This document shows positions 2,832-32,000 of a stretch of 32,000 nucleotides of DNA, piece by piece. A program made the position numbers and the translations under genes. The DNA is from Wolbachia endosymbiont of Cimex lectularius (GTDB taxonomy: Bacteria; Pseudomonadota; Alphaproteobacteria; Rickettsiales; Anaplasmataceae). The stretch lies in NCBI RefSeq assembly GCF_000829315.1, contig NZ_AP013028.1, positions 780,001-812,000 of the forward strand, in the 5' to 3' direction. Every line of letters starts with the position of its first letter. Within the stretch, counting starts at the first letter, position 1. The notes beneath the pieces were generated by a model, which saw only the letters and a list, made by a program, of their open reading frames with translations, did not search any database and was not told the DNA's origin.

Positions 2832-4301
2832 ATGAATGAACCAATAATTGGTAGGGAAAAAGAAGCAGCCATTCTAGAAAATAAGCTTCATTCCCAATCA
2901 GCTGAATTTATTGCTGTTTATGGTCGGCGTTGTGTGGGTAAAACATACCTAATAAAACAATTTTTCAGTAAACATGCCGATATTTTATTTGAACAGACTG
3001 GTCTTAACAATGGTACTTTGCAGGAGCAGCTTGCAATTTTTACACAGGCGTTATCGAATACTTTTTACAAAGGTGCAAGAATGGCTTTGCCTAAAAATTG
3101 GATGGATGCTTTGCAACAACTCGCACTTGCTATTGATAATAACACACATGAGAATGAACAAGTTGTTTTATGTTTTGATGAATTGCCGTGGCTAGCTACA
3201 AAAAAATCTGGGTTTCTAAAAGCATTAGAATATTTTTGGAACACACGTTGGACATACCGAAAGGGACTTATCTTGGTTGTGTGTGGCTCAGCGGCTTCTT
3301 GGATGTTGGAAAATATAATTTATACCAAAGGGGGATTACATAATCGTATTACTGCAAGAATACCTTTGCAGCCTTTTAACTTACGTGAAACTAAAGAATA
3401 TCTAAGATATTTAGGAGTCAACCTTAATCACCAGCAAATATTGCAGCTCTATATGGCCATGGGAGGAATACCGCATTATCTTAAGGAAGTAAGTAAAGGA
3501 TTATCGGCAGCGCAGAATATTAATGTGATCTGCTTCCAGGAGAATGGTTTATTATTTGATGAATTTGATATGCTGTTCCACTCCTTATATGAAGAGCCAG
3601 AAACATATCTAAGTATTATTCGCGCAATTGCAAAAAAAACAAAAGGAATCAGCAGAAAAGAACTTATAGAAGTAACTAAAATCACTGAGGGTGGTTACTT
3701 AACTACTAGATTAAGGAGCTTAGAAGAAGCTGGGTTTATTGGTGGTTTTTTACCACTGAATAAGGCAAAGAGAGGAGTATATTACAGAATAATTGACGAA
3801 TATATATTATTCTATCTAACATGGATTGAACCGTTTAGGGGAGTAACAAAAAGGGCAATAATAAGTGATGCCCACTATTGGGAGTTAGCAATAAAGAAAC
3901 CAGCTTGGCAAATATGGACAGGACAAACATTTGAAGCAGTGTGTTTTAAACATGCCAATAAAATTAGAAGAAAATTAAATATAGAGCATATAGCAGTCAT
4001 ATGTAGAGATTGGCAATATCACCCAGAGAAGAACAGTAAAGAATCTGGTGCTCAGATTGACTTAGTTTTTGATCAAGAAGATGGGTGTGCAATGCTTTGT
4101 GAAATAAAGTATAGTGATAAACCTTACACAGTAACGAAGGAATTTGTTGAACAATTAAAGAGAAAAGAAGCAGTTTATAGAGAAAGAACAAGGTCGAAAA
4201 AACAGATATTCTGGGTATTGGTTGCTGCAAATGGAGCTTCTGAGAATCAATATCTAAAAGATACGATACATCATGTGATTACACTAGAAGACTTGTTTTG
4301 A
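2832..4301 (+). CDS. AAA-type ATP-binding protein (ATPase_2/DUF234-like)
   Basis: Walker A in VYGRRCVGKTYL, Walker B in VVLCFDELPW. Overall layout resembles the archaeal-type ATPase plus DUF234 family. Start moved from 2805 to 2832 because of the promoter position. Confidence 0.8.
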   Translation: MNEPIIGREKEAAILENKLHSQSAEFIAVYGRRCVGKTYLIKQFFSKHADILFEQTGLNNGTLQEQLAIFTQALSNTFYKGARMALPKNWMDALQQLALAIDNNTHENEQVVLCFDELPWLATKKSGFLKALEYFWNTRWTYRKGLILVVCGSAASWMLENIIYTKGGLHNRITARIPLQPFNLRETKEYLRYLGVNLNHQQILQLYMAMGGIPHYLKEVSKGLSAAQNINVICFQENGLLFDEFDMLFHSLYEEPETYLSIIRAIAKKTKGISRKELIEVTKITEGGYLTTRLRSLEEAGFIGGFLPLNKAKRGVYYRIIDEYILFYLTWIEPFRGVTKRAIISDAHYWELAIKKPAWQIWTGQTFEAVCFKHANKIRRKLNIEHIAVICRDWQYHPEKNSKESGAQIDLVFDQEDGCAMLCEIKYSDKPYTVTKEFVEQLKRKEAVYRERTRSKKQIFWVLVAANGASENQYLKDTIHHVITLEDLF

Positions 4302-4304
4302 GTT

Positions 4305-5780
4305 ATGTACAACAACTTACGCGACTTCATCTCTGCTTTGGAAGAAAAAAAGGATCTAATTAGGGTTAAAAAGGAAGTTTCAACGATCCTTGAAATGACG
4401 GAAATTCACCGTAGAGTTCTGTCAAACAAAGGACCAGCAATCATTTTTGAAAATGTTGTCACAGAAAACGGCAAAAATTCGATTCCAGTTTTGGTGAATT
4501 TATTTGGCACTATTGAGAGAATTGCATTGGGACTGGGTATAAATCCTGGTGAACTGAGGGATCTGGGTAAACTTCTGGCGTTTTTGCAATCTCCTGAACC
4601 ACCAAAAAACCTCAAGGATGCTATGAAGATGTTTCCTCTGCTAAAAGTTGTGTTGTCGATGCGCAGTAAAGTCGTGAGCAAAGCCCCATGTCAAGAAGTG
4701 GTGCTAACTGGGGATGAAGTAGACCTCAGTTTACTACCTATTCAAACGTGTTGGCCAAATGAACCTGCACCGCTTATCACCTGGCCGATTGTGGTAACAA
4801 AAGGGCCAACAGAAAATAAACAAGATAATTTCAATCTTGGAATATATCGTATGCAAGTCGTGGATAAAAAAACGACTCTGATGCGCTGGCTTGCACATCG
4901 TGGGGGAGCGGGTCACTATAAACGGTGGAAGGAGAAGGGGCAAAGCATGAAGTTTCCTGCTGCTGCTGTGATCGGTAGCGATCCCGCAACGCTTATCGCT
5001 GCAGTAACTCCAGTGCCAGAAACATTGTCAGAATACCAATTTGCTGGACTGCTGCGCAAAAAACCTCTCGAACTTGTAAATTGTAAAACTATACCACTTC
5101 AAGTGCCAGCTCATGCGGAGATTGTTCTGGAGGGCTATGTAAGTTTGGATAGATATCAAGATGAAGGGCCATACGGAGACCACACTGGTTACTATAATTC
5201 TGTTGAGCAATTCCCGGAATTCAACATTACTGCAGTCACAATGCGCAAAAATCCAATTTATCTCAGCACTTTTACTGGCAAGCCACCAGATGAACCATCG
5301 ATTCTTGGTGAAGCACTCAATGAAATCTTTGTGCCGATTCTTATCAACCAATTTCCAGAGATAGTGGACTTTTATCTGCCACTAGAGGGTTGTTCCTATA
5401 GAATAGCAGTAGTGTCGATCAAGAAATCTTATCCCGGGCATGCGAAAAGAATTGTTATGGGCATACTTTCTTTCCTCAAGCAGTTTTTATACACCAAGTT
5501 CATGATAGTTGTTGATGATGATATAAATATACGTGATTGGAAAGAGATAATGTGGGCAATATCAACGAGAATGGACCCTGTGCGTGATACAATCATGATA
5601 GAGAATGCACCAATTGATTATTTAGATTTTGCCTCTCCTGAAAGTGGACTTGGAGGTAAAATGGGATTTGATGCGACAAATAAAATTCCGCCTGAAACCA
5701 AACGAGAGTGGAGAAGAAAAATTGAAATGAGCGAAGAAATAGTAAAAAAAGTTACGGAGGAGTGGGAGGAGTATGTCTAA
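4305..5780 (+). CDS. ubiD: UbiD-family decarboxylase (4-hydroxy-3-polyprenylbenzoate decarboxylase)
   Basis: 491 aa, N-terminus [26 protein letters not shown], with internal [18 protein letters not shown] and [10 protein letters not shown] blocks typical of UbiD. Confidence 0.9.
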
Positions 5781-5972: not shown

Positions 5973-6824
5973 ATGACAAAATACGTCTTGTCCATTGATG
6001 GAGGCGGCATTAGAGGGATCATTCCAGCAATTATTCTGGCAGAAATAGAAAGCAAAACAAAAAAGCCTATTTCTCAAATATTTGATCTCATTGCAGGAAC
6101 TTCAACAGGTGGAATTATTGCAGCTGGGTTATGTAAGGAAGATAATCTGGGAAATCCTCAATACTCAGCTAATGATTTCGTTAAACTTTACGAAGAGTAT
6201 GGACCATATATTTTTAAATCTTCATTCTTTAGACGATCAATACTATCTTGGTTTAATTGTACAAAATACCCACGAAAAAACATTGAATTTGTACTGGATA
6301 AGTATTTTGGTAATGACACCTTAAAAAACACTTTGAGTAAACTATTAATTACAAGCTACGATATTTACAATCATTGTCCATTTTTCTTTAAAAATTGGAA
6401 AGAGAATAAAAAGTTTATCAAGCTAAAAGACGCGTTGAGAGCAACAACTGCTGCACCAACTTATTTTATTCCAAAAAAATTGGAGATTAAACAGATGGAA
6501 AAGGTACTAATAGACGGCGGAGTTTTTGCTAAAAATCCAGCTGCTTGTGCATATGCAAGTGGTAAAGTACTTTTTCCTAATGATGACATAATTCTTTTAT
6601 CTATTGGTACCGGTAGGCTATATCGCCCTATTGAGTACATAAACTCAAAAAGATTGGGAATGATAAGTTGGATCAAACCACTAATAGACATACTATTTAC
6701 TTCAGGTCTTGATGAAGTAAATTATCAATTAAACAAGATTATGGGTAATAGATATATACGAATACAATCGAAACTAAAAGTAGCATCAATTGAGATGGAT
6801 AACACTACACCCGAGAACATGTAG
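5973..6824 (+). CDS. patatin-like phospholipase (ends at a premature TAG; homology continues to 6902)
   Basis: Oxyanion motif DGGGIRG, nucleophile elbow GTSTGG, catalytic Asp in IDGGVFAKNP. After TAG 6822-6824 the same frame reads HLKQEAQAMIKHNREAIDKFCDGFC. Confidence 0.85.
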   Translation: MTKYVLSIDGGGIRGIIPAIILAEIESKTKKPISQIFDLIAGTSTGGIIAAGLCKEDNLGNPQYSANDFVKLYEEYGPYIFKSSFFRRSILSWFNCTKYPRKNIEFVLDKYFGNDTLKNTLSKLLITSYDIYNHCPFFFKNWKENKKFIKLKDALRATTAAPTYFIPKKLEIKQMEKVLIDGGVFAKNPAACAYASGKVLFPNDDIILLSIGTGRLYRPIEYINSKRLGMISWIKPLIDILFTSGLDEVNYQLNKIMGNRYIRIQSKLKVASIEMDNTTPENM

Positions 6825-7112: not shown

Positions 7113-7589
7113 GTAGCTATAAGCATTAAGAAATTTACTAAGTAGAAAAAAAAGCAAAAGAAGCCCCGTGGTGGCTATTTATTTACTTTTGTGTCGAAAT
7201 GTTGGCGTTTTTTTATCCTAAGCGCTTAATAAGTGCGACTTAGCTGCTTTTTAATGCAACTAACCTTAGCCATAAACATTTAAGAAATTTACTAAGCAGA
7301 AAAACAGGCAAAGAAACCCCGAGTAGCTAGTTATTCACTATCTATCTTATAACATTGGCGTTTTTGATGTCTTAAACGACTTATAAGCACGTTTCAGCTT
7401 GTATAGGTAAAAAAGCAAAAGTTTTAAAAAGACATACAGTGCACATAGTGCGAAAAATTAAACATGAGACGCCAAATGTACTAAGTTTTTTTGTCGTTTA
7501 ATCTGCACAGACTGAAGATAAATAATAGCTTCAGTCTCATTATAAGAGTAACAGCGAAAGTTGTCAAGTAGTTTTTTTGTTTCTATTGG
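7113..7589 (-). repeat. ~470-bp intergenic repeat family, copy A (orientation defined by its internal promoter)
   Basis: Aligns by eye along its length with 18136..18655 (same orientation) and 23924..24382 (inverted). Contains two degenerate ~153-bp tandem units starting at about 7124 and 7277. Confidence 0.85.
7539..7567 (-). promoter_or_regulatory. consensus promoter TTGACA-N17-TATAAT inside repeat copy A
   Basis: On the minus strand, TTGACA is the reverse complement of 7562-7567 and TATAAT of 7539-7544, with a 17-nt spacer and an upstream A-tract (aaaaaaactac). Confidence 0.6.
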
Positions 7590-7732
7590 GTAACGGCTGG
7601 ATCAAATTGCAATGTTCATGCAGTTGTGACTGAAATTGCGCTAGCTTGCTGATCTATGTAAACATAGGCACTATCCTGTTGATAAAGCTCAAACTAACTG
7701 ATAAATTCTTAACACAGTTATTGTTGAAACAA

Positions 7733-13688: not shown

Positions 13689-14001
13689 TTTAAAATCAAC
13701 TTGGGATGGAGGAAGTTAGTGGCGGTTTAGACGTCACATACTCCTTCATCACAATGATAAAGAAGCTTACCTTTATCTCTGACGTATTTTAAAGGAATTT
13801 TGGGGTTATTGATGTCTTTACCACCAATATCATGCCATTTCTTTTCCCATGCAACATAATATGGCTCAAGGTCTTGCGGCGTTAATTTATATATTTCTTT
13901 CAGCTCTATTCCTTCATAAATAGCAAATATCCAATCCACTTTTCGGTATTTTGCAATTATTGTAGGATTCATATGATGATGAGTAGAAAAGTCTTTTGTA
14001 A

Positions 14002-14861
14002 GAACCTGTTTAAAATCTTGGAAATGTGAGGTAAAGTAAGCATAGATTAATAATGAGGTGTCTATGCAGAAAAGTTATCCAAGTAATATAAGTCAAGAGC
14101 AGTTTGAAAAAATCAGGCCAATTTTGGAGAGTAGCAAGCAGAAAACAAAACCAAGAAAACTTGATTTGTATGACGTATTTTGTGGGGTGTTGTACGTCTT
14201 AAAAAGTGGTTGTCAGTGGAGGATGTTACCAAAGGGTTTTCCAAGATGGGAAAGCGTATATTACTATTTTCGAGTGTGGAGTAAAAAGAATGGAGAAGAG
14301 CCAAGCTTGTTGGAATTAGTCTTAAAAAAAATTAGTTGGAGAGGTCCGTATCAGCAATGGTCGGAAAGAGAAAACTAGCTTTTGTATAATTGATTCTCAA
14401 AGCGTTAAAAACGCAGATACTGCTGAAAAAAAAAGGCTATGATGCAGGTAAAAAGATTTCAGGGATAAAGCGCCATATTGCAGTTGATACACAAGGTTTG
14501 CCACATGCAATTTATGTAACAACGGCAGAAGCAACTGACCGTAGCAGTGCTGTGAAAATGGTCGAAAATGCTAAAGCAAACCTCTCTGAAGTTAAAAACA
14601 TACTGGTTGATGCTGGCTACACAGGAGAAAATTTTGCAACACAAATAAAAGCTATCATTGGTGCGACTGTTGAAGTAATAAGCGAAGTGAGTTACACACT
14701 TTCGTCGTATTGCCAAAAAGATGGGTTGTTGAACGCTCTTTTGCCTGGTTAGAAAAGTGCAGGCGATTGTGGAAAAATTGCGAGCGGAAGCTCAACACTA
14801 GCTTACAGATGATAGTCCTCTCCTTCATTTCTCTCCTGTTACGAAGATTTTAAACAGGTTC
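14002..14861 (+). mobile_element. IS5-family insertion sequence, copy 1 (860 bp, carries a 1-bp deletion), TSD TAA
   Basis: Termini GAACCTGTTTAAAATCTT...AAGATTTTAAACAGGTTC, flanked by TAA (13999-14001 and 14862-14864). An A is missing near 14680 relative to the other copies. Confidence 0.9.
14058..14853 (+). pseudogene. IS5-family DDE transposase, degraded copy (extra frameshift in the orfB part)
   Basis: orfA spans 14058..14378. The orfB part diverges after ..GATVEVI ([10 protein letters not shown] versus [11 protein letters not shown] in the other copies). Confidence 0.85.
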
Positions 14862-15336
14862 TAAGAAGAGCATTTATTGATTTAAGCTCATATTCATTAC
14901 CATACTCATCAATAGCATCATTTCCTTCGCGTCCTGGAAGAATAGTGAGTCCAGTTAGTAGTAAGACTTGTAGGATTTTTCCACCGTTGTCCTGAAATAT
15001 ATCATTTATACCATGCTTAACAGCAAACTCTTGATGTTTCCGTATATGGGGAAATAGTTCTTCCAGAAGTTTTCTATCTTGATAAGTTCCCTCCGGGTTT
15101 AGAAGTGCAGTAGGTACGACACCGAGCGCATCTGCTATGCGCTCAATATTATCTATAGAGATATTTCGCTCACCACGTTCAACGGAGCCTATATATGTCC
15201 TGTGTAATTTGCATAAATCAGCAAGAGTTTCTTGGGAAAGTCCTTTTATATTTCTTAGCCTTCGTATATTCTGAGAAAGAAGTAACCGTAGAGGTTGCCT
15301 TTTTATTTTCATCATCTCTACAAGGTAATAGTTGAC

Positions 15337-15362
15337 AATTATAAGTCTACAGACTATAAGTA
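15337..15362 (-). promoter_or_regulatory. C-box-like operator (two units separated by TGTA), overlapping divergent promoters
   Basis: The minus strand reads TACTTATAGTC-TGTA-GACTTATAATT, 22-47 nt upstream of ATG 15315. It contains a minus-strand TATAAT (reverse complement of 15338-15343). A plus-strand TTGACA (15332-15337)-N17-TATAAG (15355-15360) runs across it. Confidence 0.55.
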
Positions 15363-15370
15363 TCTTTTGT

Positions 15371-16402
15371 ATGGTAACCGCATTGGAAAAATTTAAATTT
15401 AATAATAAACCCACATATACTACAGATATGGGAGCTGCGTACTGTGGAAACTCTCTTAACTTATTGCCTCAATTACCAGATAATAGCTTGGATCTCGTAA
15501 TAACCAGTCCACCGTTTGCTTTGCAAAGAAAAAAAGAATACGGAAATGAGTCCCAAGCGGAATATGTTGCATGGCTTAGTCAATTTGCAAAGTTAGTACA
15601 TAGCAAACTCAAAGATACTGGCAGTTTTGTACTTGATCTGAGTGGGGCTTATGAAAAAGGCGTGCCATCTAGAAGTTTATATAATTTTAGAGTGCTTGTG
15701 CATTTCTGTGACGATATAGGCTTCTTTCTTGCAGAAGATTTCTATTGGTATAATCCTTCTAAATTGCCAAGTCCAATTGAATGGGTAAATAAGAAAAAAA
15801 TCAGAGCAAAAGATTCTGTTAACACAGTATGGTGGTTCAGCAAAACTAAGTGGCCTAAAGCAGATGTCACAAAGGTGCTAGCGGAATACAGTGACCGCAT
15901 GAAAAAACTTATCGAGAACCCAAAGGCTTATTATACTCCAAAGGAACGGCCATCAGGGCACAATATTGGTAGTAGCTTTGGCAAAGATAATGGAGGAGCT
16001 ATTCCATCGAATCTTTTGCAGATTCCCAACTCAGAATCTAATAGCCAGTATCTTGCTGCATGTAAGAAACTAGGTATAAAACAGCATCCAGCTAGATTCC
16101 CTGCTAAATTACCTCAATTTTTTATCCGGTTTCTAACACAACCAGGAGATGTTGTTTTAGATATTTTTGCTGGTTCTAACACAACAGGTTTTGTGTGTGA
16201 GCAAGAAGACCGTTGCTGGCTAGCATTTGAAGAAAATAGAGAATACCTTGCTGCATCTGCTTTCAGGTTCTTAAAAAAAGAATGCTCAAAGGAAGAGTTA
16301 GAAACTATTTATCAACGCATTGTTCATGGTGAAGAGCAAGTATTAAAGGCTAAGCAGCCTATATTGGATCTTAAATTCACTCAGCAGTCATTAGTAGTTT
16401 AG
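15371..16402 (+). CDS. M.PvuII-like N4-cytosine DNA methyltransferase (beta class)
   Basis: [18 protein letters not shown] (SPPF catalytic motif) lies N-terminal to [13 protein letters not shown] (AdoMet motif). Long collinear blocks include [44 protein letters not shown] and AASAFRF. Confidence 0.9.
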
Positions 16403-16519
16403 AAGCAAACTTGTGCTCTTCGTTCATGGTTTTCCCGTTTTTAGCAATAACTTTTTATATAAGCATTTTTGTTGCTTGTTATCTAAGTGGAGAAAGTCAC
16501 CTCTCCCCACTCAACTTCA

Positions 16520-16553
16520 AAACCGGACTTGTGACTTTCACCACATCCGGCTT
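16520..16553 (-). ncRNA. group II intron catalytic domain V
   Basis: The minus strand reads AAGCCGGAUGUGGU-GAAA-GUCAC-AA-GUCCGGUUU. It has a 9-bp lower helix with the AGC triad and a G.U pair, a 2-nt bulge on the 3' strand, a 5-bp upper helix and a GNRA tetraloop, 34 nt in total. Confidence 0.85.
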
Positions 16554-16785
16554 CTCTCTAATTTGGTGTTTGTCATACATACTTCTCCATGTAATCAACA
16601 TTTCAAAGCTTGGTAAATTTATTTTTGTAGCTTAAATACGGCGTTTTCTATACTACTAGAGAGGTCGTATTCATTCATACCTAACACTTAATGTTGGCTC
16701 ATAACATATTAACCACTACTTACAACTTTACCCTCCAAATTACAGTGTCCACGTCAGCATATCCTAAACATTACTTTAGGCCTTA

Positions 16786-17646
16786 GAACCTGTTTAAAAT
16801 CTTCGTAACAGGAGAGAAATGAAGGAGAGGACTATCATCTGTAAGCTAGTGTTGAGCTTCCGCTCGCAATTTTTCCACAATCGCCTGCACTTTTCTAACC
16901 AGGCAAAAGAGCGTTCAACAACCCATCTTTTTGGCAATACGACGAAAGTGTGTAACTCACTTCGCTTTATTACTTCAACAGTCGCACCAATGATAGCTTT
17001 TATTTGTGTTGCAAAATTTTCTCCTGTGTAGCCAGCATCAACCAGTATGTTTTTAACTTCAGAGAGGTTTGCTTTAGCATTTTCGACCATTTTCACAGCA
17101 CTGCTACGGTCAGTTGCTTCTGCCGTTGTTACATAAATTGCATGTGGCAAACCTTGTGTATCAACTGCAATATGGCGCTTTATCCCTGAAATCTTTTTAC
17201 CTGCATCATAGCCTTTTTTTTTCAGCAGTATCTGCGTTTTTAACGCTTTGAGAATCAATTATACAAAAGCTAGTTTTCTCTTTCCGACCATTGCTGATAC
17301 GGACCTCTCCAACTAATTTTTTTTAAGACTAATTCCAACAAGCTTGGCTCTTCTCCATTCTTTTTACTCCACACTCGAAAATAGTAATATACGCTTTCCC
17401 ATCTTGGAAAACCCTTTGGTAACATCCTCCACTGACAACCACTTTTTAAGACGTACAACACCCCACAAAATACGTCATACAAATCAAGTTTTCTTGGTTT
17501 TGTTTTCTGCTTGCTACTCTCCAAAATTGGCCTGATTTTTTCAAACTGCTCTTGACTTATATTACTTGGATAACTTTTCTGCATAGACACCTCATTATTA
17601 ATCTATGCTTACTTTACCTCACATTTCCAAGATTTTAAACAGGTTC
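16786..17646 (-). mobile_element. IS5-family insertion sequence, copy 2 (861 bp), TSD TTA
   Basis: Same termini as the other copies, flanked by TTA (16783-16785 and 17647-17649). Confidence 0.9.
16794..17590 (-). CDS. IS5-family DDE transposase (orfA 17590..17270, orfB 17258..16794; full length needs two frame changes)
   Basis: orfA has an HTH-like N-terminus ending ..CQWRMLPKGFPRWESVYYYF. The DDE core IIDSQSVK is in the third frame. LVDAGY and VVERSFAWL are in orfB. Confidence 0.85.
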
Positions 17647-18135
17647 TTAGCTTTTTAGACAATCCCTCCAACATAAATGCTTGCGGCTGGCTACCTACTT
17701 ATTCCATAGGAATAAGAGCATATATGAGGTTACTCCGTTCCATGGTTTCGTTTCGCGTTAGACTTAGGTTTTTACTATTTGCCGGAAGCTGAGAACATCT
17801 ATAATCAAGAATAAATAATCTTGATTCCTCTTTTGCTTCATACCATTTTGGTCTATGCGTATCAACCTTGTTTCCATATTGGTACTAACGACAATTCAAA
17901 CATAAATTTCTCTCGTAACCATATCTAGCTCTGCTTGCAGGAATTTACGATAAGGTTTAGTATTACCTGCTTTTGTCTCATGCTTGCACCCCAGAGGTTG
18001 CCATTCTCTGAAATGTGAAACATACATTATCTCCGATGTCTAGAGAAGATGGAATTTAACCATCACAAAACCACGACTATTCGGATCACACATATATCTT
18101 TACCTCAACACTCTCCACATTAGCGTTAGTCACTG

Positions 18136-18655
18136 TCTATTTTCAATATTGGCGTTTTTCATAACGCTGCGCGCTCTTAAATTACCTAGCCACAAATATT
18201 TAAGAAATTTACCAAGTGAAAAAAAAGCAAAGGAAGCCCCGTGGTGGCTAATTATTTACTTTTGTGTCGAAATATCGGCGTTTTTTTTATTCTAAACGCT
18301 TGATGAATGCGACTTAGCTGTTTTTTAATGCAACTAACCTTAGCTGCAAACATTTAAAAAATTTACTAAACAGAAAAAACAGCAAAAGAAATCCCGGTAG
18401 CTAGTTATTTACTATCTATCCTATAATATTGGCGTTTTTTTATGTTTTAAACGACTTATAAGCGCGTTTGAGCTTGTATAGGTAAAAAACCAGAAGTTTT
18501 AAAAAGACATACGGTGCACATAGTGCAAAAAATTAAACATGAGACGCCAGATATACTAAGTTTTTTTGTCATTTAATCTGCACAGACTGAAGATAAATAA
18601 TAGCTTCAACTTTATGATAATGGGTTTGGAGGAACTTGTCAAGTAGTTTTTTTGT
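18136..18655 (-). repeat. ~470-bp intergenic repeat family, copy B (with an extra partial unit)
   Basis: Collinear with 7113..7589. Tandem units start at about 18197 and 18351, with a partial third unit at 18136-18190. Confidence 0.85.
18614..18642 (-). promoter_or_regulatory. promoter TTGACA-N17-TATCAT inside repeat copy B
   Basis: TTGACA is the reverse complement of 18637-18642 and TATCAT of 18614-18619, with a 17-nt spacer. It lies 34 nt downstream of the ccmF stop, on the same strand. Confidence 0.55.
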
Positions 18656-20640: not shown

Positions 20641-21160
20641 AAACTATAGTTATTTATATAATGATATTACTAATAACGAGTGAGGAGTTAAAGTTTTAAT
20701 ATAGGGAAAAACTAGCATGATGCCTCCATATTTTGCTGAGCTAACCACATTAACGGTAAGTAAAAATTAAATATTAAGTTTTATACTTTTACTGTGTAGC
20801 ATTAGTACTGGAGTAGCATTATGGGTGCAATCAAAATTAGTAAATCTCTATTTAGCAGAAGTAATAAAATAACAAAACAGTATGACGAACTAATAGTTGA
20901 AAAAAATCTCTATATTATTTTAGGTTTTAAAGGCAGAGAAGATTTTGAAAATAAGACAAGTAAGCTGTTTAATAATGATGAGAAGCAACTTAAAAAACTA
21001 CAAGATAAGCTATGGTATAGATTCGAAAAGAAAATAAAAGACGATAAAGGAAATAATAAAGCAGCTAAGGACATCAATAATACTATTAAAGAATCTAAGA
21101 CTACTGAAAGTAAACTAGATAGTTTATTGGAATTTAAAAAACAGCTACAAAGCTTTCTAA

Positions 21161-22021
21161 GAACCTGTTTAAAATCTTCGTAACAGGAGAGAAATAAAGG
21201 AGAGGACTATCATCTGTAAGCTAGTGTTGAGCTTCCGCTCGCAATTTTTCCACAATCGCCTGCACTTTTCTAACCAGGCAAAAGAGCGTTCAACAACCCA
21301 TCTTTTTGGCAATACGACGAAAGTGTGTAACTCACTTCGCTTTATTACTTCAACAGTCGCACCAATGATAGCTTTTATTTGTGTTGCAAAATTTTCTCCT
21401 GTGTAGCCAGCATCAACCAGTATGTTTTTAACTTCAGAGAGGTTTGCTTTAGCATTTTCGACCATTTTCACAGCACTGCTACGGTCAGTTGCTTCTGCCG
21501 TTGTTACATAAATTGCATGTGGCAAACCTTGTGTATCAACTGCAATATGGCGCTTTATCCCTGAAATCTTTTTACCTGCATCATAGCCTTTTTTTTTCAG
21601 CAGTATCTGCGTTTTTAACGCTTTGAGAATCAATTATACAAAAGCTAGTTTTCTCTTTCCGACCATTGCTGATACGGACCTCTCCAACTAATTTTTTTTA
21701 AGACTAATTCCAACAAGCTTGGCTCTTCTCCACTCTTTTTACTCCACACTCGAAAATAGTAATATACGCTTTCCCATCTTGGAAAACCCTTTGGTAACAT
21801 CCTCCACTGACAACCACTTTTTAAGACGTACAACACCCCACAAAATACGTCATACAAATCAAGTTTTCTTGGTTTTGTTTTCTGCTTGCTACTCTCCAAA
21901 ATTGGCCTGATTTTTTCAAACTGCTCTTGACTTATATTACTTGGATAACTTTTCTGCATAGACACCTCATTATTAATCTATGCTTACTTTACCTCACATT
22001 TCCAAGATTTTAAACAGGTTC
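21161..22021 (-). mobile_element. IS5-family insertion sequence, copy 3 (861 bp), TSD TAA
   Basis: Same termini as the other copies, flanked by TAA (21158-21160 and 22022-22024). Confidence 0.9.
21169..21965 (-). CDS. IS5-family DDE transposase (orfA 21965..21645, orfB 21633..21169; two frame changes needed)
   Basis: Identical to the other copies except for one substitution in orfA (KKSGEEP versus KKNGEEP). Confidence 0.85.
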
Positions 22022-22640
22022 TAAAAGACCAAAATGACCAAGGTATTGTGTTAAATACAATTAACCCTGCTAGTGCTGCACGTGTAATTGAAGTTAGTGG
22101 TATACATCCAAAAGAGCGTGATATTAAAAAATTGAAGAAAGCTCAACCTCTGACCTCTAACAAGCAGGATTTTGAAGACGCTTTAGGGTACATAGAATCA
22201 CAAGAAAAAGCTATTGGAATTATGTTAGAGGAACTTAGGGAATACAAGAAAAACTCTATTAAGATTTTTCTGTTGGGTTATACTGACCCACTGAAGAAAA
22301 AACACCCCAAATCACACGGCAAAAGAGAAGATGCTATATCAATATTATCAAGTAATGAGCTGAAGAATTTTTATGATAAAAGCATAGAAGAAGGAATGCT
22401 ACAACCAATGGCGTCTTATAAAGAGTACAAAAACCTATATGATAAAATGAACCAGGCGGAAAAAGAATCAAAGAGCATAATTGAAAGGAAAGAATGGGAG
22501 GAGAATTTGAAGAAAACAGATAAGTCGATAGTCAAAACAATCAACGACATAAAAAAATATAGAGAAGCAATCCTTAACTGTAAACACTTTCAAAACTCTT
22601 ACATAAAGGAAAAAGAGGAGCATCCATTTAGGAGTAAATC

Positions 22641-23895: not shown

Positions 23896-23923
23896 TTTCT
23901 TTCTTTCTGAATTCTAGTATCAT

Positions 23924-24382
23924 CCAATAGAAACAAAAAAACTACTTGACAACCTTCACCGTTACCCTTATAATAATATTGAAGCTATTCATTTAACTTC
24001 GCAATCTGCAGATTAAAACGACAAAGGAAACTTTGTATTTTGTGTCTCATGTTTAAATTTTTGCACTATGTGCACCTCACGTCTTTTTAAAACTTCTGCT
24101 TTTTACCTGTACAAGCTGAAACGCGCTTATAAGTCGTTTAAGACAGTATAGAACGTCAAATAGAACAAGGGAGAATTTGAATACTAGCTGCTCTGGGTTT
24201 CTTTTACCTTTTTTTTCTGCTTAGTAAATTTCTTAGCACTTAAGCTAAGGGTCTGTTGCAGTTTAAAAGCAGCTAAATTGCAGCGTTTAAGGCATAAAAA
24301 CGCCAATACTAAAAATAAATACCGACCAGGGCTTCTTTTGCTTTTTTTCTCATCTGGTAAATTTCTTAAATATTTATTGCTA
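23924..24382 (+). repeat. ~470-bp intergenic repeat family, copy C (inverted relative to A and B; most diverged)
   Basis: Its reverse complement aligns with 7113..7589 and 18185..18655. Confidence 0.8.
23946..23974 (+). promoter_or_regulatory. consensus promoter TTGACA-N17-TATAAT inside repeat copy C
   Basis: TTGACA at 23946-23951, a 17-nt spacer, TATAAT at 23969-23974. It lies 50 nt downstream of the prmC stop, on the same strand. Confidence 0.6.
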
Positions 24383-24880
24383 AAATAGTATTCTGGATTC
24401 CAGTGTCAGCTACTTGGATGACAGGAAGAGGATGCTGGAATGATACCATCATAGAACTTCAGCTATACTCTATGATTTTACATATTAATTTAATTATTTA
24501 TATCTTTTTGCTAAGATGTAAATTATACTGATATGGAAATTTACGCTTTTTTTAGGGAAATCACTTTATGCTTGATATTGAAGGATTAACAAATTAGAGG
24601 TTAAAGTTATGACAATCAATCGACAAGTAAATAAAAATATAACTAAAGAAGAGTATTTCAACAATGGTGGTAAGGGATTTAACTCACCACATATTGTAGA
24701 AATAGAAGAACTAAATATCAAAGTAGAGGTTTATTCTCATAATTTAAGAGCAAGTAAAGTTCCTAAAATTGAAAGTGAGATAAGAGAAACAGCTACTAAT
24801 TTTAAAGGTGCATTTAAATTGGAACCTTGCAGTTCAGAACAAACATTCAAGATTTATATGTTTGACGATAAGGATGATTA

Positions 24881-25741
24881 GAACCTGTTTAAAATCTTGA
24901 AAATGTGAGGTAAAGTAAGCATAGATTAATAATGAGGTGTCTATGCAGAAAAGTTATCCAAGTAATATAAGTCAAGAGCAGTTTGAAAAAATCAGGCCAA
25001 TTTTGGAGAGTAGCAAGCAGAAAACAAAACCAAGAAAACTTGATTTGTATGACGTATTTTGTGGGGTGTTGTACGTCTTAAAAAGTGGTTGTCAGTGGAG
25101 GATGTTACCAAAGGGTTTTCCAAGATGGGAAAGCGTATATTACTATTTTCGAGTGTGGAGTAAAAAGAATGGAGAAGAGCCAAGCTTGTTGGAATTAGTC
25201 TTAAAAAAAATTAGTTGGAGAGGTCCGTATCAGCAATGGTCGGAAAGAGAAAACTAGCTTTTGTATAATTGATTCTCAAAGCGTTAAAAACGCAGATACT
25301 GCTGAAAAAAAAAGGCTATGATGCAGGTAAAAAGATTTCAGGGATAAAGCGCCATATTGCAGTTGATACACAAGGTTTGCCACATGCAATTTATGTAACA
25401 ACGGCAGAAGCAACTGACCGTAGCAGTGCTGTGAAAATGGTCGAAAATGCTAAAGCAAACCTCTCTGAAGTTAAAAACATACTGGTTGATGCTGGCTACA
25501 CAGGAGAAAATTTTGCAACACAAATAAAAGCTATCATTGGTGCGACTGTTGAAGTAATAAAGCGAAGTGAGTTACACACTTTCGTCGTACTGCCAAAAAG
25601 ATGGGTTGTTGAACGCTCTTTTGCCTGGTTAGAAAAGTGCAGGCGATTGTGGAAAAATTGCGAGCGGAAGCTCAACACTAGCTTACAGATGATAGTCCTC
25701 TCCTTCATTTCTCTCCTGTTACGAAGATTTTAAACAGGTTC
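24881..25741 (+). mobile_element. IS5-family insertion sequence, copy 4 (861 bp), TSD TTA
   Basis: Same termini as the other copies, flanked by TTA (24878-24880 and 25742-25744). Confidence 0.9.
24937..25733 (+). CDS. IS5-family DDE transposase (orfA 24937..25257, orfB 25269..25733; two frame changes needed)
   Basis: Frame 1 (orfA) runs to the A8 run at 25203-25210. Frame 2 encodes LVGEVRISNGRKEKTSFCIIDSQSVKNADTAEKK and runs to the A9 run at 25305-25313. Frame 0 encodes [33 protein letters not shown]. Confidence 0.85.
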
Positions 25742-26559
25742 TTACACTCACCTTGGTGGAAGCAATTCTTTTGGATTTAACCTTGGAGATGAAGGGGGTA
25801 TGTGTCGTTCAGGGAGTGGTAATGTTTGTGCTGAAATGTACGTCTATCAGAAAGGTGGTGTTCTTAACCTCCAGCATGAATTTGCACATGGTTTAACTTA
25901 CTTGGCGGGAGGCAAACAAGTATTCAAAAATTCTCCTAAAGCATTAACGGAGGGAATTGCAGATTATTTTGAACACTATTCAGACCACAAGTTCAATGCT
26001 CAAGGATTAAGCATTGACAAAACTGAGGCTGCAAGTTTGGATTTAAGTAAAATCTTAGAATTAAAATACTCAACCGATGATGAAAAGGATAGTCTTGTTT
26101 ATAAAACTGGTCATGCGCTAGTAATGTATTTACAGGAAAAACATCCTAGTTTATTGCGAGACTATCTAGAAGCTTTGCGCAAAGGCGACTTACATAAGTC
26201 AGAAGGCTTTCTCTCTCAAATAAAAGGTCAAGATGATGCTTTCAAGGGCTGGCTTGCTGAAAATAATACAGACACTGCAATGGAGAAAATCAATGCCCTG
26301 CAAGTTACAAAAGGGGATTTTATAGCAACTGGTCAAGAAATAGTGGATAAAGAAATTAAAAATGTATCCTATTATAGAGCCGACATAAAAACAATGGATG
26401 GAGAAGAGGTTGGAAGTTTCTCTCCTGTAGAACATGTTGCGTTTTATGATGTTGCTCGTGCTGTTAACAGGGCAACAAATGATAGTCTCGATATATCAAA
26501 GGAATATCACTTCTTAAAGGTAATAAGAACTGATGGACAGAACAAATTAGTCTATTCCG

Positions 26560-29898: not shown

Positions 29899-30264
29899 AA
29901 TTTCTTTTTATTGTATAATTGCCATTTACCTCATTCTACCTCTTTATTACCTTTTTTCAATAAGTCCCCTCCACGACAATTATTTTAGCTAGGCCTAAAT
30001 AGGCATTGCATTAAAACAAAAACTGGTATTAACTGATAATTAGTACTCTGGTTTTATTATGGTGAGTATGTTAATAGTAAGTGGGGTTGGAAATGGTTGC
30101 GAAAGCTGAAAAGAAAGATGAGAAAACTAGCCTGGGAAGCAAAATACTAGATTACGTGCCGTGGAGAACGGCACTCACAGTTGCTGCTTTGCTATTCCAG
30201 TTGTTGGTCCTGTTGCTGGTACAGTTGTTGGAACTTTAGCATATGGTAATTATAGGAAGAATAA

Positions 30265-31125
30265 GAACCTGTTTAAAATCTTCGTAACAGGAGAGAAATG
30301 AAGGAGAGGACTATCATCTGTAAGCTAGTGTTGAGCTTCCGCTCGCAATTTTTCCACAATCGCCTGCACTTTTCTAACCAGGCAAAAGAGCGTTCAACAA
30401 CCCATCTTTTTGGCAATACGACGAAAGTGTGTAACTCACTTCGCTTTATTACTTCAACAGTCGCACCAATGATAGCTTTTATTTGTGTTGCAAAATTTTC
30501 TCCTGTGTAGCCAGCATCAACCAGTATGTTTTTAACTTCAGAGAGGTTTGCTTTAGCATTTTCGACCATTTTCACAGTACTGCTACGGTCAGTTGCTTCT
30601 GCCGTTGTTACATAAATTGCATGTGGCAAACCTTGTGTATCAACTGCAATATGGCGCTTTATCCCTGAAATCTTTTTACCTGCATCATAGCCTTTTTTTT
30701 TCAGCAGTATCTGCGTTTTTAACGCTTTGAGAATCAATTATACAAAAGCTAGTTTTCTCTTTCCGACCATTGCTGATACGGACCTCTCCAACTAATTTTT
30801 TTTAAGACTAATTCCAACAAGCTTGGCTCTTCTCCATTCTTTTTACTCCACACTCGAAAATAGTAATATACGCTTTCCCATCTTGGAAAACCCTTTGGTA
30901 ACATCCTCCACTGACAACCACTTTTTAAGACGTACAACACCCCACAAAATACGTCATACAAATCAAGTTTTCTTGGTTTTGTTTTCTGCTTGCTACTCTC
31001 CAAAATTGGCCTGATTTTTTCAAACTGCTCTTGACTTATATTACTTGGATAACTTTTCTGCATAGACACCTCATTATTAATCTATGCTTACTTTACCTCA
31101 CATTTCCAAGATTTTAAACAGGTTC
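30265..31125 (-). mobile_element. IS5-family insertion sequence, copy 5 (861 bp), flanks TAA and TTA do not match
   Basis: Same termini as the other copies. TAA lies at 30262-30264, but TTA lies at 31126-31128. Confidence 0.9.
30273..31069 (-). CDS. IS5-family DDE transposase (orfA 31069..30749, orfB 30737..30273; two frame changes needed)
   Basis: Identical to the other copies except for one substitution in orfB (RSSTVKM versus RSSAVKM). Confidence 0.85.
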
Positions 31126-31148
31126 TTACGAAGATTTTAAACAGGTTC
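31126..31148 (+). mobile_element. solo 23-bp IS right-end remnant abutting copy 5
   Basis: TTACGAAGATTTTAAACAGGTTC equals the last 23 nt of the orfB-side IS terminus. It is followed by TAA (31149-31151), which matches the TAA at 30262-30264. Confidence 0.8.
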
Positions 31149-32000
31149 TAAGAAAAATGGGCTTGAAAAAGCTTGGGATGAACATTGCAAAAACGAGAAA
31201 GCTCCTGATGATAAAAAAACTGACCAGTACAAAAAGAAATTTGAAGAATTTTACAATCTAGGTACAAATTATACTAACCTATTACCAAAGGAAGAAGCCG
31301 GAAATTATCGACCATTTGCAAAACAGGTCTTTAAGGAGATGTTTAAACACGCTGGAGCTCAAGTTCCAAGCGACCCTATCTTGGAAGAACTAGTTACCCA
31401 TTGCAACCAAGCAGGATATGAAGGTGCTTTATTTACACAAATTAGCCTTAGTAAGTATGGTCTAATGCTACAAAATCCTGTAAAAGTGATAAATATTGAC
31501 TGTACTGATATAAATCACATAACAGTGAAATCTGATATGATAATACCTATAGTGAAATCTGATGATCCAGAAGAAGAAGCTTGCCGGATAAATAGCTCAC
31601 TAGAATTCACACTTGAATCTCAAGATGGAAAAGATGGTGTAACATATAAAGATGGTAAATTATTACTCACTATTTCTGAGAAGCTAAAAGACTACCCAGT
31701 TGTTGATGAAATGCAACAAAGTAAAAGTTTATTTGATGTCATTAAAGAAATTTTTCTCCAATTGATTGAGAAAGTTTTTGGCCATACTAATGATATAAAA
31801 ATAATAGAAGAGAACGATGTGATTACAATGGCAGGCAGCTTTGGTAAGTCATTGAAAGTAAAGAGTACACTAAAGGAAGTCAAGCCAATAATGAGTGACA
31901 TTGCTCGGAACAAATAGTAGTAAAAAACTGCATCTAGTCAAAAGAGAGTGAAAATTCTTCTACACAATCAATCACTTCAGAACTTGAAAATTGATTTTTA

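Follow-up and report, generated by a model that had tools for sequence, protein, structure and literature searches.

The spacer between ccmF and a PvuII-type methyltransferase gene in the Wolbachia endosymbiont of Cimex lectularius (wCle) raises the question of whether it holds a group II intron and, if so, whether that intron is a working element or a relic, in a genome for which protein annotation reports neither a gene nor a pseudogene of such an intron (Sinha et al. 2023, PMC10195089). The window analyzed here comprises 32,000 nucleotides of contig NZ_AP013028.1 (positions 780,001 to 812,000; coordinates below are those of the window), and an earlier note, made from its sequence alone, had described at this locus a 'mini' group II intron without an open reading frame (ORF), interrupted by an insertion sequence (IS). 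The minus strand from 18091 to 16478 is a complete six-domain group II intron, measuring 750 nt once the IS and its target duplication, together 864 bp, are excised. It is a real intron, for which boundaries, structure, an internal deletion, the IS insertion, neutral divergence and insertion at two precise sites can each be documented.

Boundaries of the intron

The two genes that flank the intron, ccmF (BAP00105.1) and the methyltransferase gene (BAP00101.1), are convergent, and both are exact matches to wCle proteins. Read directly from the minus strand (16300-18400), the intron begins with GUGUG at 18091-18087, as the earlier note had reported, and ends in …CUUAGAUAAC at 16478 (terminus …GAUAAC, also given as …UUAGAUAAC), in keeping with the GUGYG…AY termini of group II introns (5' GUGUG, 3' …AAC). 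Its full-length Wolbachia relatives all begin with GUGCGAYCCGAA and all finish with CACUUAGAUAAC. Furthermore, the boundaries are supported by an uninterrupted paralogue, here called L127, and by two kinds of unoccupied site. The syntenic methyltransferase-ccmF spacer of the related strain wCfeF measures only 646 bp and lacks exactly the intron, its alignment to the wCle spacer running to …UUGAGGUAAAGAUAGAU (…GAUAGAU) and picking up again at GCAACAAAAAUGC. The ligated exons of L127, for their part, are colinear with vacant repeat units of the window and align to them without gaps (…GUAAAU|AAUUAGCCACC…). These two independent empty sites both place the 3' end at 16478, as do the full-length relatives; the previously proposed 3' end at 16481 was therefore discarded, the 5' end at 18091 was retained, and the length is 750 nt rather than the ~747 nt that follows from the former 3' end.

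Orthologous and paralogous copies

Related Wolbachia metagenome-assembled genomes retain the order ccmF-intron-methyltransferase and lack the IS. Among these orthologous copies, L130 and L129 are 97% and 89% identical, respectively, to the IS-deleted wCle sequence (intron and flanks), while L138 and L139 show 95-96% identity over the intron. An exact domain V (DV) scan of metagenome contigs yielded L127, which is 97.7% identical to the IS-deleted window sequence and occupies a different locus. L127 is a Wolbachia contig, since a DnaJ-ankyrin protein encoded nearby shares 86% identity with one of wCfeF; the named homologues of this protein are all from Wolbachia but two, which are labelled Rickettsiales bacterium. 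Two further contigs, L125 and L126, come from the sample of L127 and at their ends contain no more of the intron than its last ~100 nt. Because the 3' flanks of L125, L126 and L127 are mutually divergent past ~56 nt, the three represent distinct loci. A degenerate DV pattern (AGCCGGATGNNNNGAAANNNNCANGTCCGGTT) searched against genome contigs matched unrelated bacteria, with no Wolbachia among the matches listed. Viral contigs gave zero matches to the exact DV, the IS-site junction, the deletion junction and the hairpin of exon-binding site 1 (EBS1); a BLAST search of phages returned no DNA match to the intron, and a tblastn search of them with a cyanobacterial intron-encoded protein (IEP) returned no Wolbachia phage.

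A further observation concerns domain VI (DVI) of L129 (13060-13130), which, when compared with the other copies, lacks one G in the 5' strand of its helix and one C in the 3' strand, so that the helix is one pair shorter and the remainder stays in register, though this copy is otherwise heavily decayed.

Domain architecture and covariation

The Rfam model for DV and DVI, RF00029, matches 16481-16555 of the minus strand at 47.4 bits, above the gathering score of 40 and with an E-value of 1.7e-06 for the whole window and both strands, and this is the sole match in a gathering-threshold Rfam scan of the entire window. A permissive scan also returned RF04356, a plastid model of DV only, with 50.5 bits, which lies under that family's gathering score. 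The RF00029 match, end-to-end homology to full-length introns and covariation uphold the identification of the element as a group II intron without an ORF. The 34-nt core of DV contains the AGC triad, AA bulge and GAAA loop precisely as the earlier note had described them, and compensatory changes are found in five of its pairs. DVI is likewise present as a hairpin with a branch A, consisting of a 12-bp and a 3-bp helix with the bulged A at 16484, 7 nt from the true 3' end, followed by AAC (16480-16478); the branch A and 3' end formerly assigned were off by a few nucleotides, and an A at 16488 was discarded as branch point.

An alignment of eight sequences, i.e., four ORF-less copies and four full-length introns with the ORF deleted, was folded with RNAalifold, giving 216 pairs laid out as domains I to VI (DI-DVI). 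Across 214 pairs in 34 helices, standard pairs fill 94.6% of the cells, compared with 39-43% when partners are slid by 1-3 columns and 88.4% in shuffled alignments. Changes on both sides of a pair, i.e., compensatory changes, were observed in 74 pairs, compared with 6-15 (slid) and 27.7 (shuffled), and none of 500 shuffles equalled the observed number. Strong covariation is thus found across all domains of the six-domain fold. The Rfam models of domains I to IV (RF01998 and related), which the earlier note had also proposed to run, gave zero matches in the window at E ≤ 10, and none on the uninterrupted copies L127 (E ≤ 1), L129 or L130 (both E ≤ 0.01). As these models do match a different intron in the contig L131 (see below), they simply fail to cover this intron subclass.

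The annotated hypothetical protein BAP00104.1 (37 aa) corresponds exactly to an ORF at 17764-17877 (minus strand), situated in DI across the EBS1 hairpin, and is almost certainly a spurious gene call. It was the only one of nine small ORFs over the intron and adjacent repeat that an exact look-up found in the protein collection, and it led to further orthologous copies, not to paralogues.

Origin by internal deletion

Comparison with full-length Wolbachia introns, as had been suggested in the earlier note, identified the parent family. The wCfeF strain possesses a full-length, IEP-encoding copy (L133, CP116767.1). Positions 2581-3213 of L133 are 84% identical to intron nt 1-631, and positions 4754-4876 are 90% identical to nt 628-751; the ~1,540 nt between these two segments of L133 are absent from the 750-nt intron. 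The other full-length introns sampled match the two segments at 83% and 85% (L135-L137) or at 76% and 84% (L134), and this end-to-end nucleotide homology makes the wCle element a member of the Wolbachia group II intron family.

Domain IV, previously taken for a mere 5-bp hairpin, is in fact ~190 nt long, and ~28 codons from the start of the IEP gene and ~29 from its end survive there. The N-terminal stub is degenerate, reading …FKLQK*IYQA where the intact gene reads FKLQKRIYRA, and contains stops and a frameshift. The C-terminal remnant, i.e., the last 29 codons, is read through DV into DVI, as in the intact gene, and was recovered with the IEP of wCfeF as tblastn query (residues 548-576, 89.7% identity, E = 3e-10), a search that revealed no further reverse transcriptase (RT) sequence in the window. 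The earlier statement that an RT/maturase ORF is lacking is therefore correct, only remnants being left, and domain IV does not hold the intact ORF that characterizes an autonomous mobile intron. The identical deletion junction is present in L127, L130, L129, L138, L139 and wCle. An internal deletion of ~1.5 kb in an ordinary ~2.3-kb Wolbachia intron thus gave rise to the 750-nt element; since it is colinear with the ~2.3-kb introns and keeps both ends of the IEP gene, it is not primitively small, and the label 'mini' does not hold.

The full-length IEP ORF of L133 (3127-4857) itself crosses DV and stops inside DVI, its C-terminus, …REKPDVVKVTSPVLKSSGER, being encoded by the catalytic hairpin. 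The C-terminal region of this IEP also carries an HNH-like CxxC…HH…HxxxH motif, absent from the precomputed Pfam list.

Exon recognition and target sites

The EBS1 hexamer AUUUAU, located in a hairpin loop, pairs with intron-binding site 1 (IBS1) of the 5' exon, and EBS2 is represented by GUACC. In L127 all 11 pairs are formed, EBS1 pairing 6/6 with AUAAAU (-6 to -1) and EBS2 5/5 with GGUAC (-13 to -9), and at the wCle locus nine of the 11, with EBS1 pairing 5/6 with AUAUAU. The same columns hold EBS1 GUUUAC (exon GUAAAU) and EBS2 AUAUU (exon AAUAU) in L133, and EBS1 AGAUGU (exon ACAUYU) and EBS2 UAUUG (exon UAAUA) in L135-L137, the EBS positions thus covarying with the exons. No sampled full-length copy has the EBS of the ORF-less lineage, which fit its own sites. 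The predicted target sequence of the L127 version is UUGAGGUACAUAUAAAU|AAUUAGCC, and homology between wCle and L127 reaches exactly 17 nt upstream of the intron.

In L125-L127 the insertion site is supplied by a dispersed intergenic repeat of ~430-510 bp, which is found at 7126-7595, 18187-18655 and 23920-24432 of the window and at 3392-3825 and 10848-11226 of L127. Each of its sub-units (~130-150 bp) reads AAAAACGCCRATATT … GTAAAT|AAYTAGCYACC …, with a GC-rich run and then a T-run. Identity between wCle and wCfeF-like Wolbachia is 76-92%, depending on the copy.

Probable mobilization in trans

The same deletion form occupies two unrelated, precisely bounded sites, both with an empty counterpart: the ccmF locus is vacant in wCfeF, and L127-type repeat units are vacant in the window. 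Based on these bounded sites, their empty versions and the 11/11 EBS pairing, the ORF-less RNA was most likely mobilized in trans in the past by the protein of another intron. According to this proposal, the ORF-less form with EBS1 AUUUAU and EBS2 GUACC would have been copied by reverse splicing and reverse transcription, with the protein supplied by a full-length relative, into sites of the type GGUAN-NN-AUANAU|A. One such site would have been downstream of ccmF, in an ancestor of wCle and several related strains, and others in the intergenic repeat of wCfeF-like Wolbachia. The copy at the ccmF locus would then have drifted neutrally, and its DIII internal loop would have been entered by an IS5-type element, with duplication of TAA, in no lineage other than that of wCle.

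It is unlikely that the ORF-less form was never mobile, and that a full-length intron was inserted at each site, with the deletion later being copied between loci by homologous recombination or gene conversion, which is the main alternative, or with repeat and intron being duplicated together as DNA. The copies are 96-98% identical, so that conversion is mechanically possible, the L125-L127 insertions sit in a repeat that could itself duplicate, and of the introns in L125 and L126 only the terminal ~100 nt are available. However, the ccmF-locus site is unlike the repeat unit beyond -17/+2 and is empty in wCfeF, which argues for a precise, intron-sized insertion; the divergence of the L125, L126 and L127 3' flanks after ~56 nt speaks against duplication of one locus, and the EBS of the ORF-less form suit its own sites and none of the sampled full-length copies shares them.

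Returning to mobilization in trans, the chances appear evenly balanced that the element is a founder or member of a distinct non-autonomous mini-intron lineage of supergroup-F-like Wolbachia, with its own target GGUAC-NN-AUAAAU|A, which colonized the dispersed repeat with a borrowed RT and whose wCle fossil attests to past intron activity. If this is true, the wCle genome, now described as free of group II introns, formerly harboured active ones.

The insertion sequence in domain III

The IS, whose target TAA falls in the internal loop of DIII, belongs to the IS5 family, as indicated by a transposase encoded in two frames (DUF4096 and DDE_Tnp_1 parts, Pfam), 16-bp terminal inverted repeats (GAACCTGTTTAAAATC/GATTTTAAACAGGTTC) and a short target duplication of the TNA type. 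Excision of 864 bp restores colinearity with uninterrupted copies elsewhere, and the subtraction made in the earlier note was accordingly sound. The IS was found only in wCle and its near-identical draft assemblies, which break at it, and in none of the other orthologous or paralogous intron copies; the intron copies of related strains being IS-free, the insertion is specific to the wCle lineage.

The window contains five copies of this IS (13999-14865, 16786-17646, 21157-22022, 24880-25742 and 30264-31128), which are 99.7-99.9% identical, and four of which have matching TAA or TTA duplications, while the orthologous 22-kb loci of L129 and L130 contain zero copies. The presence of five near-identical copies in 32 kb points to a recent burst. 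Unequal triplets (TAA and TTA) flank the copy at 30264-31128, which adjoins a 27-bp solo IS end (31126-31152); one IS may thus have been inserted into another or have recombined with it.

Present state of the wCle copy

The introns of wCle and L129 are 89.7% identical, compared with 88.8% and 89.3% for the flanking spacers and 92.5% for third codon positions of ccmF, and the comparison with L130 gives the same picture; the copy at the ccmF locus of wCle thus diverges as fast as its flanking spacer. Among 214 pairs, one is broken in L127, four in wCle, six in L130 and 37 in L129. Furthermore, the DVs of L129 and L139 are mutated (GAAA to CAAA or AAAA, plus stem mismatches), and that of L138 falls outside the DV pattern. 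From the neutral-rate divergence, the broken DVs of orthologues, the lack of a reported IEP gene in wCle and the IS in DIII, we infer that the wCle copy is a dead fossil and not a working intron.

The earlier note had instead read a mini-intron dependent on a maturase supplied in trans. Such a working intron would be transcribed, e.g., together with ccmF, and splicing would take place in wCle or in relatives that lack the IS. DV, DVI, the 5' GUGYG and the fold are indeed intact in IS-removed wCle, L130 and L127 (one to six of the 214 pairs broken), and related IEP genes are common in Wolbachia. This reading is nevertheless highly doubtful, as it is opposed not only by the split DIII, the spacer-like divergence and the decayed DVs, but also by the annotation of wCle, which reports no IEP gene or pseudogene (PMC10195089), and by the intergenic position of the intron between convergent genes, where splicing would restore no reading frame. 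Dependence on a trans-acting maturase is therefore plausible as history, in view of the two sites, but not at present. Finally, the notion that a DV-like hairpin arose by chance in AT-rich intergenic DNA, which has nothing in its favour except the small size of DV, is already refuted by the Rfam score above the gathering threshold, 750 nt of end-to-end colinearity with full-length introns, strong covariation and the empty sites of both insertions.

Taken as a whole, the account of a deletion derivative that was mobilized in trans, drifted neutrally, was split by an IS and is now a dead fossil is, in our judgement, probable. Some points weigh against it: gene conversion between copies could carry one deletion to a second locus without any mobilization in trans; L127 is the only paralogue known in full length, and L125 and L126 could be full-length parents; and the copies of wCle and L130, in which DV is canonical and broken pairs are few, may still have been active not long ago, prior to the arrival of the IS.

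Relationship to other group II introns

Full-length Wolbachia group II introns have reportedly been surveyed by Leclercq, Giraud and Cordaux in 2011. The wCle intron shares with those sampled here the termini, the covarying six-domain fold and the columns of EBS1 and EBS2, and with L133 84-90% nucleotide identity outside the deletion; it differs from them in the loss of ~1,540 nt of IEP ORF, in its EBS1 and EBS2 and hence its targets, and in the presence of the IS.

ORF-less bacterial introns are said, by Simon et al. in 2008, to occur in genomes with related IEP-encoding introns. The wCle element resembles such introns in having a full ribozyme, no IEP, full-length kin in the same bacterial group and a presumed protein in trans. 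Unlike most of them, it resides in a genome reported to be without any IEP, a situation resembling that of C.te.I1; unlike C.te.I1, the wCle copy shows no sign of constraint and is split by an IS. ORF-less bacterial group II introns are rare and usually found alongside related IEP-encoding copies (PMC4424553), and phytoplasma examples include OYPI2 and FD92 (PMC4299374).

More distant relatives were retrieved by BLAST against plasmids, namely introns of Candidatus Megaera polyxenophila (L132, CP113872.1; L131, AP017965.1) that are 67% identical in DI-DIII and 80% in DV-DVI and have the same 3' end, UUAGAUAAC. Unlike the wCle intron, these belong to another genus of the Rickettsiales, encode an intact 566-aa RT/maturase (RVT_N, RVT_1 and GIIM domains) and contain an extra ~33-nt insert near the 5' end. 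The Megaera IEP retrieves many Wolbachia IEPs at ~57% identity, of which the loci of three were examined. In the related intron of L131 (4047-7563), the gene for the RT/maturase is broken into pieces, with another group II intron nested inside it in a twintron-like arrangement, the second intron having an Rfam D1D4-2 match at 4965-5081, DV/DVI at 6703-6778 and its own RT gene.

Cyanobacterial chloroplast-like (CL, IIB) introns (L128, L079, L053 and L005) have a near-identical DV and are 70-77% identical in the region from J2/3 through DIII to the base of DIV (positions 500-640 of the restored sequence, intron nt ~391-531), the only part upstream of DV that matches them by BLAST; in contrast, DI is too divergent for sequence alignment. 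The best DV-only Rfam models for the intron are those of plastid ndhA/ndhB, and a cyanobacterial IEP is among the best matches of the Megaera IEP. On these indirect indications the wCle intron may belong to the CL/IIB class.

Significance for intron surveys

Surveys of Wolbachia group II introns depend on the protein gene, and wCle has been recorded without gene or pseudogene. The present locus shows that a search at the RNA level finds intron fossils that such protein-based surveys miss, and the entry for wCle is thereby corrected. To the documented ORF-less group II introns of bacteria, the locus adds one for which precise insertions, empty sites and matching EBS/IBS pairs point to mobilization in trans in the past. 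The element belongs to an already known kind, is notable mainly for having been missed by protein-based surveys, and leaves the understanding of group II introns unchanged.

Coordinates of the intron, its parts and adjoining features in the window
Feature	Coordinates	Strand	Basis and remarks
Whole ORF-less group II intron	16478..18091	-	Full-length relatives, L127, wCfeF empty site, empty repeat units
5' exon target segment UUGAGGUAAAGAUAUAU	18092..18108	-	L127 homology; IBS2 GGUAA 18104-18100; IBS1 AUAUAU 18097-18092
Domain I	17740..18076	-	Intron nt 16-352; RNAalifold consensus, covariation counts, helices 1-16
EBS2 GUACC	17881..17885	-	Intron nt 207-211; 5/5 with L127 exon GGUAC
EBS1 loop UUAUUUAU	17811..17818	-	Intron nt 274-281; 6/6 in L127, 5/6 in wCle
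Domain II	17672..17726	-	Intron nt 366-420; helices 18-21
Domain III, 5' part up to IS	17650..17661	-	Intron nt 431-442; helices 22-24
Target duplication TAA, 5' side of intron	17647..17649		IS end analysis
IS5-family IS	16786..17646	-	861 bp; orfA 17270-17590 DUF4096; orfB 16794-17258 DDE_Tnp_1
Target duplication TAA	16783..16785		Intron nt 443-445
Domain III, 3' part	16746..16785	-	Intron nt 443-482; RNAalifold consensus, covariation counts
Domain IV with deleted IEP gene	16556..16745	-	Intron nt 483-672; L133 comparison
IEP N-terminus remnant	16597..16682	-	Comparison with intact gene; stop codons, frameshift
IEP last-29-codon remnant	16500..16586	-	tblastn; part of mechanical 34-aa ORF 16497-16601
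Domain V	16519..16554 (core 16553-16520)	-	RF00029 47.4 bits; RF04356 50.5 bits; helix 33
Domain VI	16481..16515	-	Helix 34; branch A 16484
Intergenic repeat, ccmF-intron interval	18187..18655	-	~130-150-bp sub-units; unoccupied versions of L125-L127 intron site

Neighbouring restriction-modification genes

A PvuII-type endonuclease gene (14839-15414, minus strand) with helix-turn-helix and Endonuc-PvuII domains covers positions 2-75 of the 155-position profile and ends at the IS copy 13999-14865, its relatives being 241-243 aa long. The partner N4/N6 methyltransferase gene (15332-16402) is intact, and wCle appears to retain an orphan methylase.

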